From Parcubacteria group bacterium (GTDB lineage Bacteria; Patescibacteriota; Minisyncoccia; Portnoybacterales; UBA2143): a stretch of 41,348 bases of DNA. The position numbers and the translations under genes are program-made. Of the stretch, positions 2,561-9,510 are shown piece by piece; the stretch's first letter is position 1; each line of letters opens with the position of its first letter. The stretch is taken from contig JABMPX010000007.1 of NCBI GenBank assembly GCA_013203625.1, positions 1 through 41,348 of the forward strand. The letters run 5' to 3'. The notes below the pieces were generated by a model. It did not search any database. It saw only the letters and a list, made by a program, of their open reading frames with translations, and had not been told where the DNA came from.

Positions 2561-4300
2561 ATGAAAATTTTTCAGGGATCAAAAATTATCTGGCAATATT
2601 TGAAGGAATATAAAAGAAAAGTTTATTGGATTGCTCTAGTCGCATCAGCGGGTTCTATTATTAGCGCTGTTATCCCATATATTTACGGTCGTTTAGTTGA
2701 TTTAGCCATTACTGAATTTTCTAGGCTTGATCTTATTGGCGGCATACTTTTGATTTGGTTGATTTTGTCTTTATTTGGCGATTGGCTCAATCGGACATCT
2801 GGTTTTCGCGGCAACTATATTGGAGTGGATGTAGCTAATGATTTAATAGTAAAAATTAGCAGCCACATTGTAGATTTGCCTATAAGCTTCCATAAAGATA
2901 AAAAAATGGGAGAAATAAATCGCAGGATGAGTCGCGGGGCAAGTTATTTAGAAAATATTATTGGCGATATTTTATTCTATTTATTGCCAAGTTTTTTAAC
3001 GATTGTTATTGCGCTAGGGATAATGTTTCGGGTTGAGTGGCGTTTAGCCGGATCTTTAGCTATTGTTCTGTTAATTTATTCTTTAGCAACTATCTGAAAA
3101 ACGAACCCAATTGTTAGCGAGAATAAAAAACTTAACAAGATTTTTGAAAAGTCGTATGGATATCTTTTTGACGTTATTTCAAATGTCCAATTAGTAAAAT
3201 CGTTTACTCAGGAGAAAATCGAGAAAAAGAGAATCTATAGGAATTTTAGAGTTAAAATTAGCGAGTCAACTAAAGATTTCTACGGTTTCTGGAAAGATTT
3301 AAACGCTTGGCAAGATATAATTTTTAGCATCGGATTTGTTAGTGTTTTTGCTGTGGCTATTTTAATGTTAAGATCTGACGCGATTACCGCTGGCCAATTA
3401 GTTATGTTTATCGGTTATGTCAGTTTGGCTTACCGTCCTTTTGCTATGTTAGGCAGGCAGTATAAGCAATTGAGGTCTGGTTTGACTGCGATTGAGCGGG
3501 CTGAAGGACTTATGGAAGAAAAACCCGAAGCCAGTCCAAAAAGAAAAACCGAATTAAAAAACATTCAAGGCAAGGTTGAGTTCCAATCAGTTTATTTTGA
3601 TTATAACGCAAAACAGAAAGTTCTAAACGGCGTTAGTTTAAAAGTAAAGCCGGGTCAAATGGTGGCTTTGGTTGGCGAAAGCGGAGTTGGCAAGACAACT
3701 TTAGTTGATTTGATTTCCGGATACTATTTGCCTAATAAAGGAAAAATATTAATTGATGGACAAAATATTTCCAAAATAACCCTTAATTCATTAAGAGGCA
3801 ATATTGCATTAGTCCCTCAAGAGATCACGCTATTTAATGATACTATTAAGAATAATATTGGCTACGGAAAATTAAAAGCGACTGACGAAGAAATTATTGA
3901 AGCGTCTAAGGCGGCTCATGTTCATAAGTTTGTTCAGAAATTTCCTAAAAAATATGACCAATTGGTTGGCGAACGAGGAATTAAACTTTCTACTGGACAA
4001 AAACAAAGAGTGGCTATTGCTAGAGCCGTATTAAGAGATCCTAAAATTCTTATTTTAGACGAAGCTACTTCCAGCTTAGATACAGCTACTGAAAAATTAG
4101 TTCAAGAAGCTCTTGCTCGTCTTATTAAAGGCAGAACTACTTTTGTAATTGCTCATCGTTTAAGCACTATTCAAAAGGCCGATTTGATTTTGGTCCTTGA
4201 AAAAGGCATAATTATTGAAGAAGGCGATCACCAAGAACTTGTTTCCAAAGGCGGCGTATATAAGAAACTCTGTGAACTTCAGTCAACAGTAATTGGGTAA
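2561..4300 (+). pseudogene. MsbA-like ABC exporter (fused TMD-NBD) interrupted by a single in-frame TGA at 3095-3097
   Basis: ORFs 2561..3097 and 3353..4300 share one frame (offset 792 nt). The stretch 3098-3352 has no stop and encodes TMD sequence (SNVQLVKSFTQEKIEKKR...). Walker A is GESGVGKTT, the signature is LSTGQKQR, and Walker B is ILILDEATS. The joined length of about 579 aa fits a half-transporter. Confidence 0.75.
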
Positions 4301-4398
4301 ATTTTAAGAGACAGTTAAAAATAATTAAAATAATAATATTAATTGGTTGCTGGGGTAATAATTAAGAAGATTAAATAATGACTTAAAATAAAAAACTT

Positions 4399-5271
4399 AT
4401 GCATCTATCATTCATAATTTCACGTTTTTCTAATTTATTATTTTTTGTCCAGAAAACAAATCAGAATTGTTTAGTTAATTTTGATTTGAAAAAATATTTA
4501 GTCAATAATATTGATATCTCTTTTTATGGGAAAAACGAGGATGAAATTTGGAGACAGATTAGAAAATCAATTGGAAAACAAAACGCAGAACAATTTAAAA
4601 AAGCGGTTTTTCCAATAAGATCTATTTTTGATTCGCATTGGCAAGAAGCGTCAAATAATTTGCTTTTATGGAAACAGTATTTTCAAGACAATAGTACATT
4701 ATTTGAACAAGCTATTCTTGATATAAAAAAATTAAGCGGTGTAAGACATTTTGAACTTTCTAAAATTCCAATATATCTTATTTCTGATTCTCAAAGTAAT
4801 GATAAAGACATTAACGCCTGGTTTTCGTGGACGACAAAACAAAGTTTTGTAGTTGTTGAAATTCCAATATATCTTAAAGTATCTAATAATCTTTTCCCAT
4901 TAGGTGTTTTGGCTCATGAATTTTTTCATCTTATGTTAAAAAATAATAAAAATCTTGTTTTAGAAATTAATCAAATAGTTGAAAAAGATCAAATTCTACT
5001 TGCAAAATTACCAAAAGAACGTATTTCTAACAGAATGTTTTTTGAAGAATTGTTGGTTAGTTCTTTTATTCCAGAAGGTTATCTGGGCGAAAAATATTTT
5101 AGCGTTAAATCTATAGTTAATATTCCTAATCTAAAAAGTCTGTTAATCTGGCGGAAATTGATTGCTTTTAAAATGCGTCAAATAGCAAAAAAATATATTA
5201 ACAATAATCGACAAATTGATAAAGAATATTTAAACCAATTAATAAAAATTATTAGGCAAAATATAAAATAA
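4399..5271 (+). CDS. hypothetical protein with HExxH motif (possible zinc metallopeptidase)
   Basis: 290-aa ORF containing LAHEFFHLM (HExxH). I recognise no other family signature. Confidence 0.55.
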   Translation: MHLSFIISRFSNLLFFVQKTNQNCLVNFDLKKYLVNNIDISFYGKNEDEIWRQIRKSIGKQNAEQFKKAVFPIRSIFDSHWQEASNNLLLWKQYFQDNSTLFEQAILDIKKLSGVRHFELSKIPIYLISDSQSNDKDINAWFSWTTKQSFVVVEIPIYLKVSNNLFPLGVLAHEFFHLMLKNNKNLVLEINQIVEKDQILLAKLPKERISNRMFFEELLVSSFIPEGYLGEKYFSVKSIVNIPNLKSLLIWRKLIAFKMRQIAKKYINNNRQIDKEYLNQLIKIIRQNIK

Positions 5272-5304
5272 AATCCCTCTTAGAAGTTTATTCTAAGAGG
5301 GATT
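5272..5304 (-). terminator. intrinsic terminator of the rSAM-peptide operon, shared with the convergent gene
   Basis: Perfect 14-bp dyad AATCCCTCTTAGAA/TTCTAAGAGGGATT. On the minus strand it is followed by the T-rich TTATTTTAT. Confidence 0.7.
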
Positions 5305-5310
5305 AAATGG

Positions 5311-5451
5311 TTATTGCCTGTTTGCCCAGTGGCCTTTGTCCCATGGACTCATGTTTAAATCCTTGTCTCTTTTTTCAGTGGCTTCTTTTTTAGCCTGAAG
5401 AAGAACTTTTGGAATAGGGTTGGGATTTGTTTTTGAAACATAGTTCGACAT
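5311..5451 (-). CDS. 46-aa peptide, candidate RiPP precursor
   Basis: Hand translation: MSNYVSKTNPNPIPKVLLQAKKEATEKRDKDLNMSPWDKGHWANRQ. A GGAGGTG Shine-Dalgarno lies 7 nt upstream. The start is 39 nt downstream of the rSAM stop on the same strand, and a terminator follows. The ORF is below the ORF-track cutoff. Confidence 0.55.
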   Translation of the reverse strand: MSNYVSKTNPNPIPKVLLQAKKEATEKRDKDLNMSPWDKGHWANRQ

Positions 5452-5490
5452 AATTCTCACCTCCTTTCTGTGTGAATGCGTTATTTCCAG

Positions 5491-6588
5491 TCATATAAAA
5501 CCATACGATTTTATTTTTACTGAAATATATTCAAAATACCTTTTTAGATTTTCGCAAACCTCATTTATCGGCTTGATAGAATTGAGTTGTGCGTAGCAAT
5601 CCTTAGCGCATCCTCCTTTGCATATAAAATACCAGTCGCATACCCGGCAATTTTCTTTTCTTTTTCTTAATATTTCTTGAAATTTTTCTAGGCGCGGATT
5701 AGATTTAGCTAAGGTTGATTTGTCCATCACGTTGCCAAAATTCAGGACGTTTGTTTTCGGAAAGGAATCACAACCATAAATTGATCCGTCGTGGTAAACA
5801 GTAACAAACTGGTCACATCTTCCCATGTATATGCATTCACGTTTATTTCCGCCAAGAATCAAACTAACAACACTTTGAATGTCTCGAATTTCAACTTCAG
5901 GATTGTCTAGTTCTAACCAAAGATCAAATATAGTAATCATGAAATCGATGTATTGTTTCGGTAAAATAGTAAGTGAAGACACGTCATTGCAATGACCGAT
6001 ATCTTTCACTCTGGCAAATTTCAGCTTTTTTATGTCTTCTTTGATAAAAAAACTGAAAATCTCTTTTGGAGATTGATAATCGACAGTACTAATACTGCAG
6101 ATGATTCCATTAAATACCTTGGCCCGTCGCAATAATTCAATGCCTCTCATAACATTGTCATATGATCCTGTTTTATTAGGATAGTAGCGAACTCGATCGT
6201 GAAAATGTTTTGGGCCATCAAGGCTTACGCCGACAAAAAAATCGTGTTCAGTGAAGAAATTTACCCATTCGAAAGTAATCAGAGTAGCATTAGTTTGAAT
6301 TGAATTTGTTATTTTTCTTCCTTTTTGCTCCCATACGCGTTGATATTCTACTGCTTTGCGATAGAAATCTATTCCAGCGAGTAAAGGTTCTCCTCCATGC
6401 CAGATAAATTCAATATCATTTTGATTATGACAGAAAAAATCAATCGTTGCTTTCAGTACTTCTGGATGCATGCGATTTTTTCCAGTTCTTTTTTTAAGTC
6501 CAGAAGCATAACAGTAAGAACACGACAAGTTGCATAATCCGTTAATAGGTTTAATAATCGGGGTAGAAATTGCTTGATAGGTTGTCAT
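5491..6588 (-). CDS. radical SAM enzyme with C-terminal SPASM-type auxiliary cluster domain (anSME/peptide maturase family)
   Basis: CNLSCSYCY (CxxxCxxC), GGEPLL, and C-terminal CRVCDWYFICKGGCAKDC (CxxCx5CxxxC). The Shine-Dalgarno is AGGAGGTG. Confidence 0.9.
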   Translation of the reverse strand: MTTYQAISTPIIKPINGLCNLSCSYCYASGLKKRTGKNRMHPEVLKATIDFFCHNQNDIEFIWHGGEPLLAGIDFYRKAVEYQRVWEQKGRKITNSIQTNATLITFEWVNFFTEHDFFVGVSLDGPKHFHDRVRYYPNKTGSYDNVMRGIELLRRAKVFNGIICSISTVDYQSPKEIFSFFIKEDIKKLKFARVKDIGHCNDVSSLTILPKQYIDFMITIFDLWLELDNPEVEIRDIQSVVSLILGGNKRECIYMGRCDQFVTVYHDGSIYGCDSFPKTNVLNFGNVMDKSTLAKSNPRLEKFQEILRKRKENCRVCDWYFICKGGCAKDCYAQLNSIKPINEVCENLKRYFEYISVKIKSYGFI

Positions 6589-6831
6589 CGCACACCTCCT
6601 TTTCTTTAAAATTGTAAAAGTGCATCAGATTTTTTTAATCTTCTTAATAGGATATCTATTATTATCTATTTTGTCAAATTCATTTATCTCTATTTGAGAT
6701 ATAATAGTTTTAGATATCGCCAAATTGGCGATTTTTTGGTAAAATAAAGTTAAAAATAATTAAAGTTATTTTGAGTTAAAACGAGAAATTATAAAATTCT
6801 TCGTTAGAACTTAGAATAGCACAATCATATC

Positions 6832-7791
6832 ATGCCAAAAGTATTTATTACTCGTCAGATTCCTGACAAAGGAATTAATTTATTAAAAGACAAGGGCTGG
6901 GATGTTTCAGTTGGCCCAGAAGATAAAATATCAAGAGAGGATTTATTAGAAGGTGTTAAAGGCGTTGACGCTATTTTGTCGGTCTTAACAGAGAAAATTG
7001 ACAAAGAAGTTATGGAAGCGGCTGGCAAACAATTAAAAATCATTGCCAATTATGCGGTTGGATATAATAACATTGATGTGGATGAAGCCAAGAGAAGAGA
7101 GATTGTAGTTACTAATACGCCAGGCGTTTTAACAGAATCAGTAGCTGAACATACTATTGCTTTTCTTTTTGCAATTGCTGAGAGAATAGTTGAAGCAGAT
7201 AAATTTATTCGAGCTGGCAAGTATAAAGCATGGGGACCAAAGATGCTTTTAGGAGCAGATATCCAAGGAAAGACATTGGGTATTGTTGGATTAGGTCGGA
7301 TTGGTTCAGCTGTAGCTCAAAGAATGCAAGATGGTTTTGATGTTAAAATTATTTATTATGACCTTAAACGCAATGAAGAATTAGAAGAAAAATTTGGCAT
7401 GGAATATAGAGAATTAGACGACTTATTAAAAGAAGCTGATTTTGTTAGTTTGCATACTGCTTTAACTGACGAAACACGTCATTTAATCAATGCAGAAAAA
7501 TTAGCATTAATGAAGCCAAGCGCTTATTTAATTAATACTGCTCGTGGTCCAATTATTGATGAAGCAGCTTTAGTTGAAGTGTTAAAGGAAAAGAAAATTG
7601 CCGGAGCTGCGTTAGATGTATTTGAAAAAGAACCGGAATTAATGCCTGGTTTAACTGAATTGGAAAATGTTGTTTTGACTCCTCATATTGCTTCAGCAAC
7701 TTTAGGAACTCGGGATAAAATGGCTGAAATGGCTGCTAATAATATAATTGCTGTTTTAGAAGGAAATGAGCCATTAAATCCAGTTAAGTAA
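6832..7791 (+). CDS. D-isomer-specific 2-hydroxyacid dehydrogenase (glyoxylate/hydroxypyruvate reductase-like)
   Basis: NAD-binding GIVGLGRIGSAVA. The catalytic region NTARG...D...LTPHIAS is typical of the GyaR/GhrB family. Confidence 0.85.
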   Translation: MPKVFITRQIPDKGINLLKDKGWDVSVGPEDKISREDLLEGVKGVDAILSVLTEKIDKEVMEAAGKQLKIIANYAVGYNNIDVDEAKRREIVVTNTPGVLTESVAEHTIAFLFAIAERIVEADKFIRAGKYKAWGPKMLLGADIQGKTLGIVGLGRIGSAVAQRMQDGFDVKIIYYDLKRNEELEEKFGMEYRELDDLLKEADFVSLHTALTDETRHLINAEKLALMKPSAYLINTARGPIIDEAALVEVLKEKKIAGAALDVFEKEPELMPGLTELENVVLTPHIASATLGTRDKMAEMAANNIIAVLEGNEPLNPVK

Positions 7792-7794
7792 TTT

Positions 7795-9510
7795 ATGGCT
7801 TTTTCTTATTTAGAAAAAAAAGCTTTTAAGAATGGATTTAAGATTATAGCTGGAGTTGATGAGGCTGGCCGAGGATGTGAAAGAATAGATGCTGAAGTAT
7901 TAACCAATAATGGTTGGAAGTTTTATTATGATATTACATTTAAAGACAAGGTGTTGTCTTATACTAATGATAATTATATAAAATGGCAGAAAATAGAAAG
8001 AATTATAGGGAAAGATTTTAAGGGTCATCTTATAGAGTTAAAAAATCGAGGCATAAATATAGTTGTGACTCCTGATCATTATTTTACTGTCATTAGAAGA
8101 GTTTTTAAAAGAGATAAAAAAGATAGCAATAAGCTAAAATTAATTAATTACAAGGTGAGAAAAAAAAGAAAAAGAGTAATTGATTTGTCTGATAATGATT
8201 TTATACCTCGGGGAGGAAAATGGAAAGGAATAAGTAAAAAATATTTTAAATTACTTAAAATAGATAAAAATGTAGATCAATTTATAGATATTAAGCTCTG
8301 GATTTCTTTTATGGGATTATTTTTATCAGAGGGCTCTGTTTCTTATTATAAGAAAAAAGGAATGTACAGAATTCATATTGCTCAAAGCAGGGATTCATCA
8401 ACAGATAATTATAGAAAAATTTATCAACTATTAAAAAAACTTCCTTTCAAATTTAGTCAATCTAAAATAGGTTTTTCCTGTTACAACAAACAATTGTATA
8501 TATATTTGAAAAAATTTGGGAAGTGCTACGATAAATTTATACCAAAAAATATTAAAGAATTATCTCCAGATTTATTAAATATTTTTATAAAATGGATGAT
8601 ATTGGGTGATGGAACTTGTTATACTGGGGAAAACAGAAAAGAGGTTTGTGTTTATTATACTGTATCTAATAAATTAAAAGATGACTTCGAAGAAATTTTA
8701 TTAAAAGCAGGATGGACTTATCATACAAATATAAGATTACCTAGGGACAGTTTTATTAAAGGAAAATTAATAAAAAAAGAGAATCAAGTTCCTTGTTTCG
8801 AAATTCGTTTAAGAAGAAATAACAAAGCTCATGTAAAATCTTTACATAAAAAAATGCTTTTTTATAAAGGAAAGGTTTTTTGTTTACAACTTCCCCAACA
8901 CCATAATTTTTATGTAAGACGAAATGGGACAGGATATTTTACAGGGAATAGCTTGGCTGGTCCTGTTGCTGCAGCTGTTGTTTGTTGTCATTCTGAGGCT
9001 AAAAGCCGAAGAATCTTAAGATCCTTCGCTTCGCTCAGGATGACGAGCATTAAAGATTCGAAACAGCTTTCTTTAAAACAAAGAGAAGAGATTTTTGAAA
9101 GAATAATACAAGAGCCAGAAATTAAATGGAAAGTTAGCTTTGTTTGGCCTAAAGTAATTGACAGAATTAATATTCTGCAGGCAACAAAACTGGCTTGGAA
9201 GCGCTGTTTAAAAAAGCTTGATTCTCAGCCGGATTTTTTATTTATAGACGGCAATCAAGAAATTGAACGGCTGAAAATAGAGCAACAGGCAGTTATTAAA
9301 GGTGACCAAAAGATTTTTCTTGTATCCCTTGCTTCTATTATTGCTAAAGTAAGCAGAGATAGATTAATGCAGCGGCTTGATAAAAAACACCCAGGATATG
9401 AATTTGCTCAGCATAAAGGATATGGGACTAAATTACATATAAAAAATTTAAAAAAATTTGGTCCTTGCGAAATTCATCGCAAAAGCTTTAGACCAATTTG
9501 TAAAATATGA
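7795..9510 (+). CDS. rnhB: ribonuclease HII, interrupted by an intein and an in-frame palindromic insertion
   Basis: The N-extein ends GVDEAGRG and the C-extein resumes SLAGPVAAAVV...DSKQLS...IDGN...ASIIAKVSRD...GYG. The host part is about 213 aa once the 358-aa insert is removed. Confidence 0.9.
   Translation: MAFSYLEKKAFKNGFKIIAGVDEAGRGCERIDAEVLTNNGWKFYYDITFKDKVLSYTNDNYIKWQKIERIIGKDFKGHLIELKNRGINIVVTPDHYFTVIRRVFKRDKKDSNKLKLINYKVRKKRKRVIDLSDNDFIPRGGKWKGISKKYFKLLKIDKNVDQFIDIKLWISFMGLFLSEGSVSYYKKKGMYRIHIAQSRDSSTDNYRKIYQLLKKLPFKFSQSKIGFSCYNKQLYIYLKKFGKCYDKFIPKNIKELSPDLLNIFIKWMILGDGTCYTGENRKEVCVYYTVSNKLKDDFEEILLKAGWTYHTNIRLPRDSFIKGKLIKKENQVPCFEIRLRRNNKAHVKSLHKKMLFYKGKVFCLQLPQHHNFYVRRNGTGYFTGNSLAGPVAAAVVCCHSEAKSRRILRSFASLRMTSIKDSKQLSLKQREEIFERIIQEPEIKWKVSFVWPKVIDRINILQATKLAWKRCLKKLDSQPDFLFIDGNQEIERLKIEQQAVIKGDQKIFLVSLASIIAKVSRDRLMQRLDKKHPGYEFAQHKGYGTKLHIKNLKKFGPCEIHRKSFRPICKI
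7876..8949 (+). mobile_element. intein with LAGLIDADG homing-endonuclease domain (358 aa)
   Basis: It starts with Cys (CERIDAEVL, block A). Block B is VVTPDH. The two LAGLIDADG motifs are GLFLSEGSV and WMILGDGTC. Block F/G is QHHNFYV...YFTGN, followed by +1 Ser. Confidence 0.8.
8988..9043. repeat. GC-enriched imperfect palindrome inserted in frame in rnhB
   Basis: The outer arms TCATTCTGAG/CTCAGGATGA and the inner arms centre on CTTAAG. The element encodes HSEAKSRRILRSFASLRMTS in the loop between GPVAAAVV and DSKQLS. Confidence 0.65.

Follow-up and report, generated by a model that had tools for sequence, protein, structure and literature searches.

Within a stretch of 41,348 nucleotides from a Parcubacteria group bacterium (GenBank assembly GCA_013203625.1, contig JABMPX010000007.1, positions 1 to 41,348 of the forward strand; hereafter the window), a gene for a radical S-adenosylmethionine (rSAM) enzyme of the SPASM type is followed on the same strand by a gene for a peptide of 46 residues, and a third gene, which codes for a protein with an HExxH motif, converges on both. 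A first-pass annotation of this DNA had proposed a locus for a peptide that is made by the ribosome and modified after translation (RiPP), composed of the rSAM/SPASM maturase and a co-transcribed, Cys-free precursor with a Trp/Lys/His core; the HExxH gene lay outside the coordinates that it covered and was overlooked. The conserved linkage of these genes, described below, supports that proposal, and we argue that the rSAM enzyme probably matures the peptide through a cyclophane-type cross-linking of its core. The features of the locus, in coordinates of the window, are the following:

5491 to 6588, minus strand: gene of the rSAM/SPASM enzyme, 365 aa (Pfam Radical_SAM match, motifs)
6511 to 6534, minus strand: CxxxCxxC motif of the rSAM enzyme (C19, C23, C26)
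5554 to 5835, minus strand: eight auxiliary-cluster cysteines of the rSAM enzyme (C252 to C345)
6593 to 6600, minus strand: Shine-Dalgarno sequence AGGAGGTG of the rSAM gene, 4 nt ahead of the ATG
5311 to 5451, minus strand: gene of the precursor peptide, 46 aa (homologues, alignment, adjacency to the rSAM gene)
5458 to 5465, minus strand: Shine-Dalgarno sequence AGGAGGTG of the precursor peptide gene, 6 nt ahead of the ATG
5383 to 5412, minus strand: leader motif P14-K-V-L-L-Q-A-K-K-E23, presumed recognition sequence of the maturase
5314 to 5343, minus strand: core W37-D-K-G-H-W-A-N-R-Q46, presumed cross-linking site, with W-D-K, H-W-A or W-A-N as candidate units
5272 to 5304: hairpin (perfect 14-bp stem, 5-nt loop) lying between the convergent genes, with TTATTTTATA next on the minus strand
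4399 to 5271, plus strand: gene of the HExxH protein, 290 aa (homologues, invariant residues, convergent linkage, AlphaFold2 model)
4915 to 4929, plus strand: HEFFH motif of the HExxH gene
5044 to 5049, plus strand: codons of the invariant E216 and E217 of the HExxH gene
6611 to 6677, minus strand: candidate promoter region of the rSAM-peptide operon (consensus scan only; weak)

The elements first read from this DNA are all in place. The 365-aa open reading frame (ORF) of the enzyme carries the motifs LCNLSCSYCY, HGGEPLLAG and CRVCDWYFICKGGCAKDC, and exactly 39 nt separate its stop codon (TGA, 5491-5493) from the ATG of the small ORF, which encodes the Cys-free peptide MSNYVSKTNPNPIPKVLLQAKKEATEKRDKDLNMSPWDKGHWANRQ and is preceded by the same Shine-Dalgarno sequence as the enzyme gene. 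The perfect hairpin 3′ of the peptide gene, with its T-run on the minus strand, is the predicted intrinsic terminator of the rSAM-peptide operon; its position, directly against the stop codon of the convergent HExxH gene, would let it terminate transcripts that arrive from either side. At the other end of the operon, the consensus scan gave two weak, candidate sigma-70-like sites, TTGACA-17-TATCCT and TTAAAA-16-TACAAT.

A conserved peptide family under purifying selection

A word-indexed search with the peptide recovered 52 homologues of 42-73 aa, and a profile search over 1.84 billion representative proteins recovered 70 clusters at 50% identity; the family comprises at least 113 distinct members. 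Where these homologues had been called as genes, they were named “hypothetical protein”, and the peptide of the window matched no NCBIfam or Pfam model. In the alignment of the family, the invariant positions are P14, V16, L17, L18, A20 and K21 in the leader, and W37, D38, G40, H41, W42, A43, N44 and R45 at the C-terminus, which correspond to a shared leader motif P-x-V-L-L-x-A-K and to a near-invariant C-terminal core (G)P-W-D-x-G-H-W-A-N-R-K. The sequence W-D-x-G-H-W-x-N-R, plus usually one more residue, ends 109 of the 113 distinct peptides, and 101 of these 109 also show the leader pattern P.VL..A.

Across the 109 cores, there is no or almost no variation at the residues W, D, G, H, W, N and R. 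The seventh position is Ala in 104 peptides, the final residue is Lys in 90, and a Gly-Pro pair stands ahead of the core in 93, whereas the third position is occupied by Lys (83), Gln (18), Glu (4), Asp (3) or Asn (1). In the K-G-H-W that had been suggested as a plausible cross-link site, the Lys is therefore not invariant. Neither Ser nor Cys occurs among the core residues. Upstream of the core, 71 of the 109 peptides contain 1-4 extra tandem [WFY][DEN][KN] units, and most relatives have an additional one or two W-[D/E]-K units, as in KPWDKAWEKGPWDKGHWANRK; the peptide of the window, with none of them, is the minimal variant.

The conservation acts on the encoded protein. In 61 distinct DNA sequences of the core, GAC and GAT, all four GGN codons, CAC and CAT, AAC and AAT, and AGA, AGG and CGN are used almost evenly, so that D, G, H, N and R stay fixed as amino acids while both or all of their synonymous codons occur; in total, eleven residues of the peptide are conserved despite synonymous codon variation. 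Such a pattern points to purifying selection on the translated product, and not on an RNA or DNA element. Together with the number of homologues, the codon analysis rules out that the peptide gene is a chance ORF.

Linkage and distribution of a three-gene cassette

We followed the linkage in both directions. An enzyme-based scan, with one genome per GTDB species, gave seven close loci, with rSAM identities of 68-73%, in metagenome-assembled genomes of Patescibacteria (a Ryanbacteria genome among them) and in a few bins with other taxonomic labels. In each of the seven, the peptide ORF follows the rSAM gene immediately on the same strand, and a homologue of the 290-aa HExxH gene converges on the pair. 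Eleven distant rSAM matches, with 26-37% identity, from Planctomycetota, Prevotella and Alphaproteobacteria, have neither the peptide nor the HExxH gene alongside. A peptide-based scan of metagenomes then widened the picture to 68 loci, of which we regard as informative those with room on the contig for the neighbour in question. A related rSAM gene lies directly upstream of the peptide in 60 of 63 informative loci (five further loci have no upstream room), and the HExxH gene converges on it in 64 of 65. Loci whose rSAM enzymes are 43-48% identical keep the linkage too, and their core is an identical GPWDKGHWANRK. The homologues that have a name belong to bins with the labels Ryan-, Wolfe-, Portnoy- and Pacebacteria, and Minisyncoccia.

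Two expectations of the first-pass annotation can be judged from these data. It had asked whether a small ORF with a conserved C-terminal motif would accompany homologous enzymes, and such an ORF, with a C-terminal W-D-x-G-H-W-A-N-R, stands beside every orthologous enzyme down to an identity of about 43%. It had also considered the position of the precursor after the enzyme to be unusual; within this family that order is rather the norm, and it is one sub-clade that is reversed, with the peptide upstream of the enzyme in two loci (L019 and L020).

An all-against-all clustering of the ORFs in 37 long loci returned the rSAM and HExxH families as the only recurrent neighbours of the peptide; a further ORF cluster corresponds to an antisense ORF within the rSAM gene. 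In these 37 loci, the cassette has no conserved companion among transporters, RiPP recognition element (RRE) proteins, regulators or immunity genes. The cassette thus occupies varied contexts as a three-gene unit. We found no copies of the peptide in a collection of viral contigs, and the composition profile of the window shows no anomaly and no sign of recent transfer.

Three metagenome loci lack the usual upstream rSAM gene: one of them is degenerate (L048), and the other two (L070 and L090) carry a different rSAM gene beyond the HExxH gene. L048 has no rSAM gene, and its HExxH gene carries a frameshift. Another decayed cassette is found in L090 (3836-4090, plus strand), where an internal deletion fuses the N-terminus of the rSAM enzyme (…HWHGGKHLLAGLEFYRKAVE…) in frame to the peptide core, and in L074 the leader is out of frame. 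The different rSAM/SPASM proteins of L070 (5190-6515, plus strand) and L090 (5547-6782, plus strand), of 411-441 aa and with an N-terminal extension, are encoded just past the HExxH gene; their top matches are TIGR04463/Clo7bot/CefB-like and PapB-like models, all under cut-off, and they could be either an alternative maturase or an unrelated neighbour. Finally, four contigs with a GC content of about 60%, evidently not from Patescibacteria (L088 and L092-L094), carry the same peptide (…APWDKAPWDKGPWDKGHWANRK) at the contig end, with a 385-aa Cys-rich repeat protein encoded convergently downstream of it and no maturase on the contig.

The radical SAM/SPASM enzyme

The enzyme has the radical SAM core, with C19, C23 and C26 and a GGEP motif at residues 65-68, and its only Pfam matches are Radical_SAM and Fer4_12. 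Because the CxxxCxxC motif is already found at residue 19, there is no N-terminal RRE domain. In 36 members of the family, the cysteines C252, C258, C273, C314, C317, C323, C327 and C345 are invariant or nearly so, and D274, just after the third SPASM cysteine, is also conserved; these eight cysteines can ligate two auxiliary clusters.

The closest NCBIfam model is that of the anaerobic sulfatase-maturating enzymes (anSME; TIGR03942), with 282.5 bits for a cut-off of 349.45, followed by DynA (NF041298; 260.3 for 450) and GrrM/OscB (TIGR04261; 187.8 for 310). DarW, PapB, YhhB (153.3 for 445), DarE, FxsB (138.3 for 370) and AmcB (134.8 for 425) come next, in that order and all under cut-off, and XyeB scores 96.9 for 450. 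Likewise, the enzyme aligns end to end with the anSMEcpe structure (PDB 4K37, E=2e-54), whereas the alignment to the triceptide synthase ChlB (PDB 9GM3, E=5e-28) is weaker. The compact layout of the enzyme is common to anSME and to the curated cyclophane-forming maturases, whose profiles span 356-385 positions (DynA 356, GrrM/OscB 363, YhhB 369, AmcB 362). The presence of either an RRE or an anSME pattern had been put forward as informative about the role of the enzyme: what we find is an anSME-like architecture devoid of RRE, and such a layout is also that of cyclophane synthases.

The HExxH partner protein

The convergent gene encodes a protein with 155 homologues, all of similar length, which the source databases, where they name them, call “hypothetical protein”. 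Residues H173, E174, H177, E216, E217, P225, E226 and G227 are invariant in the family, and the E-E pair lies 39-40 residues after the H-E-x-x-H motif. An AlphaFold2 model of the protein (pLDDT 90.7, pTM 0.90) shows a three-stranded sheet (124-156), then the helix with the HExxH motif (166-181) and more helices, which is the arrangement expected of a zincin core. Pfam scans of one and of 30 members gave only sub-threshold matches, to M48 (15.5 bits, cut-off 20.3) and to DUF5700 (E around 0.1). A profile search of the PDB found nothing, and Foldseek searches against the PDB and BFVD returned nothing significant; the Foldseek matches have E-values of 0.46 or worse, and several of them are zinc peptidases (leishmanolysin, BACCAC_01431, ZMPSTE24 and SprT-like and MMP-like viral proteins). 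UniRef labels one homologue as “DUF2268 domain-containing”, a label that the Pfam scan did not reproduce. From the motif, the modelled fold and the genomic linkage, the protein is probably a metallopeptidase that would remove the leader of the peptide. Unlike the rSAM and peptide genes with their AGGAGGTG, the HExxH gene has no recognisable Shine-Dalgarno ahead of its conserved ATG (AAAATAAAAAACTTATG, window 4370-4401).

A predicted cyclophane peptide

Triceptides are defined by links from an aromatic residue to a C-beta on omega1-X2-X3 motifs, which are made by rSAM/SPASM “3-CyFE” enzymes (PMC11499958). Within this class, OscB joins Trp-C7 to the C-beta of Asn or Asp between residues i and i+2 (PMC11002830), and the characterised motifs include YSK, HAS and FTK (MicB) and WVN, FAR and WSK (xenorceptide) (PMC12912966); others are the Trp-x-Asn and Trp-x-Arg motifs of XncB (through Trp C6), the His-Ala-Ala of HaaB and the His-Thr-Lys of HtkB. 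The core of the window peptide holds three aromatic-X-X units, WDK, HWA and WAN. As in the core of the window, a Pro stands directly ahead of the first motif of MicA, and the spacing of the minviopeptin links (Tyr1-Lys3 and His5-Ser7) equals that of W37-K39 and H41-A43.

A second line of evidence, independent of the first and the most informative, comes from two loci with a GC content of about 50% (L091 and L095), where the same core is preceded by a different and longer leader, and the peptide lies directly upstream of an rSAM gene. The products of these rSAM genes exceed the TIGR04261 GrrM/OscB cut-off of 310, with 354.5 and 360.7 bits. Their peptides end in …DWDKEFEKGPWDQGHWANRK and …SFDKAWDKGPWDEGHWANRK, and Phe replaces Trp in some of the upstream units, so that the aromatic-x-Lys logic is kept. 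From the aromatic-X-X units of the core and the tandem W/F-[D/E]-K units of the relatives, together with the occurrence of the same core beside GrrM/OscB-type enzymes, we infer that the enzyme of the window would install i/i+2 cyclophanes. The replaceable Lys of the third position also makes a Lys-dependent, streptide-type link less likely than i/i+2 aromatic-to-C-beta links. The most likely product is thus a triceptide-type RiPP, with predicted Trp/His-to-C-beta cross-links at W-D-x and at H-W-A/W-A-N, which would be freed by the HExxH peptidase.

A plausible course of events can be drawn from these elements. The rSAM and peptide genes would be transcribed together, each with its strong Shine-Dalgarno, and the enzyme would recognise the P-K-V-L-L-x-A-K-K-E leader with no need of a separate RRE domain. 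A 5′-deoxyadenosyl radical would then take a side-chain hydrogen, most likely from a C-beta, in the core P-W-D-K-G-H-W-A-N-R-Q, and the resulting carbon radical would couple to the aromatic ring two residues upstream, giving a three-residue cyclophane with a loss of 2 Da for each ring, while the SPASM auxiliary clusters would accept the electron. Rings could form at W37-D-K39, and at H41-W-A43 and/or W42-A-N44, and in the relatives also at the extra W/F-[D/E]-K units. The HExxH protein would then free the core from its leader, with a cut that probably falls close to the conserved Gly-Pro ahead of the first Trp, and the product would be a cationic peptide some 10-11 residues long that contains one to three rings. 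In this scheme, the type and positions of the cross-links, the recognition of the leader, the role and cut site of the peptidase and the biological role of the product are all predictions.

Several observations weigh against a triceptide-type product. The best match of the window enzyme is the anSME model, and it scores under every curated cyclophane-synthase cut-off. Since W-D-x accepts K, Q, E, D or N as its third residue, no specific acceptor is defined, although such variation would be tolerable for a C-beta chemistry, and the overlap of H-W-A and W-A-N makes the ring pattern ambiguous. The pairing with GrrM/OscB enzymes comes from two short contigs only. A secreted antimicrobial RiPP would typically come with an exporter, an immunity gene or a regulator, and none of them is conserved here; a near-invariant core is also unusual among RiPPs. 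The HExxH protein has no significant match in Pfam, the PDB or BFVD, and its DUF2268 label could not be reproduced. The modification type itself is a prediction from sequence.

Alternative explanations

The annotation of the enzyme by its closest models would make it an anSME, or another anSME-like protein modifier, with an unrelated small ORF by its side. Its top HMM (hidden Markov model) and PDB matches are indeed anSME, the latter from end to end. The 36 relatives scanned all match the anSME model as well, but the best of them (E 8e-92, an estimated 310 bits or so) is still under the cut-off of 349.45. The C/S-x-P/A-x-R...TG signature of sulfatases is absent from the 41-kb window, and a single isolated match to the pattern occurs in 346 kb of related loci; two distant homologues of the Planctomycetota type do adjoin a sulfatase motif, yet they lack both the peptide and the HExxH gene. 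Moreover, the small ORF is selected at the protein level and linked to the enzyme in more than 95% of the loci, and its core offers neither of the two residues, Ser or Cys. The HMM cut-offs, the scan for sulfatase motifs and the linkage statistics contradict an anSME identity, and, with the conservation of the ORF, they lead us to reject the pairing of an anSME and a chance ORF that had been proposed as the alternative; we regard it as extremely improbable. A maturation of the peptide through some other chemistry is a better contender, if still an unlikely one: a streptide-like link between residue 39 and Trp42, a dynobactin-like N-C link of His, a darobactin-like ether, or an epimerisation. 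DynA, which closes a four-residue C-C ring between Trp and Asn and a C-N ring between His and Tyr (PMC11002830), is the RiPP maturase whose model matches best, with 260 bits, and the core has a loosely dynobactin-like layout, with a Trp, an invariant His four residues on and an Arg near the C-terminus; besides, the rSAM/SPASM enzymes of this clade are chemically versatile. That score is nonetheless far under the 450 bits of the cut-off, Tyr is absent from the core and position 39 is not fixed as Lys, whereas the tandem W-[D/E]-K repeats and the pairing with GrrM/OscB favour i/i+2 C-C cyclophanes.

A different kind of proposal concerns the fate of the product and the role of the third gene. A precursor, an rSAM/SPASM enzyme and a peptidase are the minimal elements shared with the pathways of pyrroloquinoline quinone (PQQ) and mycofactocin, and the cassette consists of just these three, with a putative peptidase in the last role. 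The matured peptide could thus lead to an intracellular cofactor or small metabolite instead of a secreted cyclophane RiPP, and the invariant core would then be the chemical precursor of one defined molecule. Both the absence of a conserved transporter, immunity gene or regulator and the near-invariance of the core, down to 43% rSAM identity and across two maturase lineages and leader types, fit this idea. We nevertheless hold it to be quite unlikely, as there is no PqqD/MftB-like RRE partner, no downstream tailoring enzyme and no linked candidate client enzyme, and the 0-4 extra W-[D/E]-K units resemble a repeat-type RiPP substrate; Patescibacteria are also described as generally devoid of respiratory chains (PMC7507113). 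As for the HExxH protein, it may be something other than the leader peptidase, either a leader-binding or scaffold partner that replaces the RRE, or a protease for immunity or self-protection. An rSAM enzyme with no RRE, an HExxH gene linked as tightly as the enzyme itself and the lack of a significant match to any characterised peptidase are consistent with such roles, and there is a precedent in WprC, an unrelated small protein needed for the activity of WprB (PMC11851443). On the other side, the invariant H-E-x-x-H and E-E residues and the zincin-like sheet and helix argue for catalysis, and the gene is convergent and outside the operon; a non-peptidase partner or an immunity protease seems to us improbable, though less so than the other departures discussed here.

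Comparison with known systems

The cassette resembles known triceptide systems (XncB/XyeB, OscB/GrrM, MscB, YhhB, HaaB, HtkB, ChlB and MicB) in having an rSAM/SPASM enzyme of about 360 aa, with no RRE, beside a short precursor. The core is likewise composed of aromatic-X-X units, often in tandem; Trp-x-Asn and aromatic-x-Lys are known substrate motifs, and in two other loci the same core lies beside a bona fide enzyme of the GrrM/OscB family. On the other hand, the enzyme of the window falls under all curated 3-CyFE cut-offs and is nearer to anSME and DynA, its core is near-invariant, the precursor is usually downstream of the enzyme, there is an HExxH partner and the hosts are Patescibacteria; the cross-link is here a predicted one.

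With the DynA, DarE and DarW systems, the cassette shares a full-length match to DynA as the best-scoring RiPP-maturase model, and a short substrate core with Trp, His, Asn and Arg; theirs bear small rings, unfused or fused. In contrast to dynobactin and the daropeptides, the core has an unrelated sequence that lacks both Tyr and Phe and has Lys or Gln, not an aromatic residue, at its end, the cassette has no transporter genes and the host is not a gammaproteobacterium. The likeness to anSMEcpe (4K37; TIGR03942) extends to the length, the domain order, the eight auxiliary-cluster cysteines and the Asp after the third SPASM Cys, and the differences are the score under cut-off, the absence of a sulfatase substrate nearby and the strict linkage to a peptide core free of Cys and Ser. 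Lastly, streptide (StrB) and the WGK and WPR systems (WgkB, WprB) have Trp and Lys/Arg motifs in a short C-terminal core, and WprA has repeated three-residue W-x-K/R units. These enzymes belong to a different rSAM clade and need an RRE or a partner of the WprC/WgkC type, whereas the enzyme of the window has no N-terminal RRE/PqqD-like domain and no small conserved partner gene, and the Lys of its substrate can be replaced by Q, E, D or N.

Neighbouring genes and other genomes

Beside the cassette, the window encodes an ABC exporter (2561-4300, plus strand; ABC_membrane and ABC_tran) that is split by an in-frame TGA at 3095-3097 and is otherwise in one frame; this exporter is not conserved with the cassette. 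Because TGA is a normal stop codon elsewhere in the window, where it ends 8 of the 37 long ORFs, the TGA in the exporter would be either a nonsense mutation, a sequencing error or a case of readthrough. The rSAM gene and a gene for a 2-hydroxyacid dehydrogenase diverge, and in the intergenic region that parts them positions 6716-6732 form a near-perfect 17-bp palindrome, ATCGCCAAATTGGCGAT, with an unpaired centre base and followed by TTTTTGG. The window holds this palindrome a single time; it may serve as an operator or as a terminator-like element. Further on (7795-9510, plus strand), the gene for RNase HII (rnhB) encodes 571 aa for an expected length of about 200, with the RNase_HII domain at residues 386-566 and an N-terminal part interrupted by an intein splicing domain and a LAGLIDADG homing-endonuclease domain; by its domains, it is an intein-containing rnhB.

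Another genome with the same cassette and a GC content of 30% (L021; GCA_964618955.1, CAZUBO010000005.1) has in-frame TGA codons in its HExxH gene, at the very positions of three invariant Trp columns of the protein, and its lepA and thrS genes contain 3-7 in-frame stops and almost no TGG (regions 5291-6100, minus strand, 634-2439 and 6476-8386). This codon usage suggests that the organism may read UGA as Trp (code 4-like) and not as Gly (code 25).

Significance

We found no description in the literature of the motif of this family, or of rSAM or cyclophane RiPPs in Patescibacteria, although a listing in the supplementary tables of a survey of the triceptide landscape is possible. Judged by its sequences, the cassette is outside every curated enzyme family (anSME, DynA, GrrM/OscB, YhhB, FxsB, AmcB and XyeB), and it would work like a triceptide or daropeptide-type RiPP. 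Three traits set it apart: a core that is nearly frozen; the presence of this one core with two rSAM lineages; and an unplaced HExxH partner together with the absence of an exporter. These traits keep a cofactor or signal in play as a minor possibility. It is doubtful, but conceivable, that P-W-D-x-G-H-W-A-N-R-K is the precursor of one defined and widely shared molecule (a cofactor, or a metal-binding or signalling factor) made by two rSAM lineages, in Patescibacteria by an anSME-like clade and elsewhere among bacteria by enzymes of the GrrM/OscB type. If this were true, the molecule would have been retained in genome-reduced episymbionts as something central to their physiology or to the interaction with their hosts, unlike the variable antimicrobial RiPPs.

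With a cyclophane-type RiPP as the preferred reading, the enzymology of these peptides gains an enzyme clade between anSME and DynA with a defined substrate of 46 aa, and an uncharacterised HExxH family is added as a candidate leader peptidase. That the core, and not just the leader, is almost frozen is rare and points to a specific conserved target. Patescibacteria are ultra-small bacteria whose genomes are tiny and in which very few biosynthetic pathways can be recognised, and a three-gene cassette kept across many of their lineages offers a concrete handle, simple to clone, on something that these bacteria evidently need.

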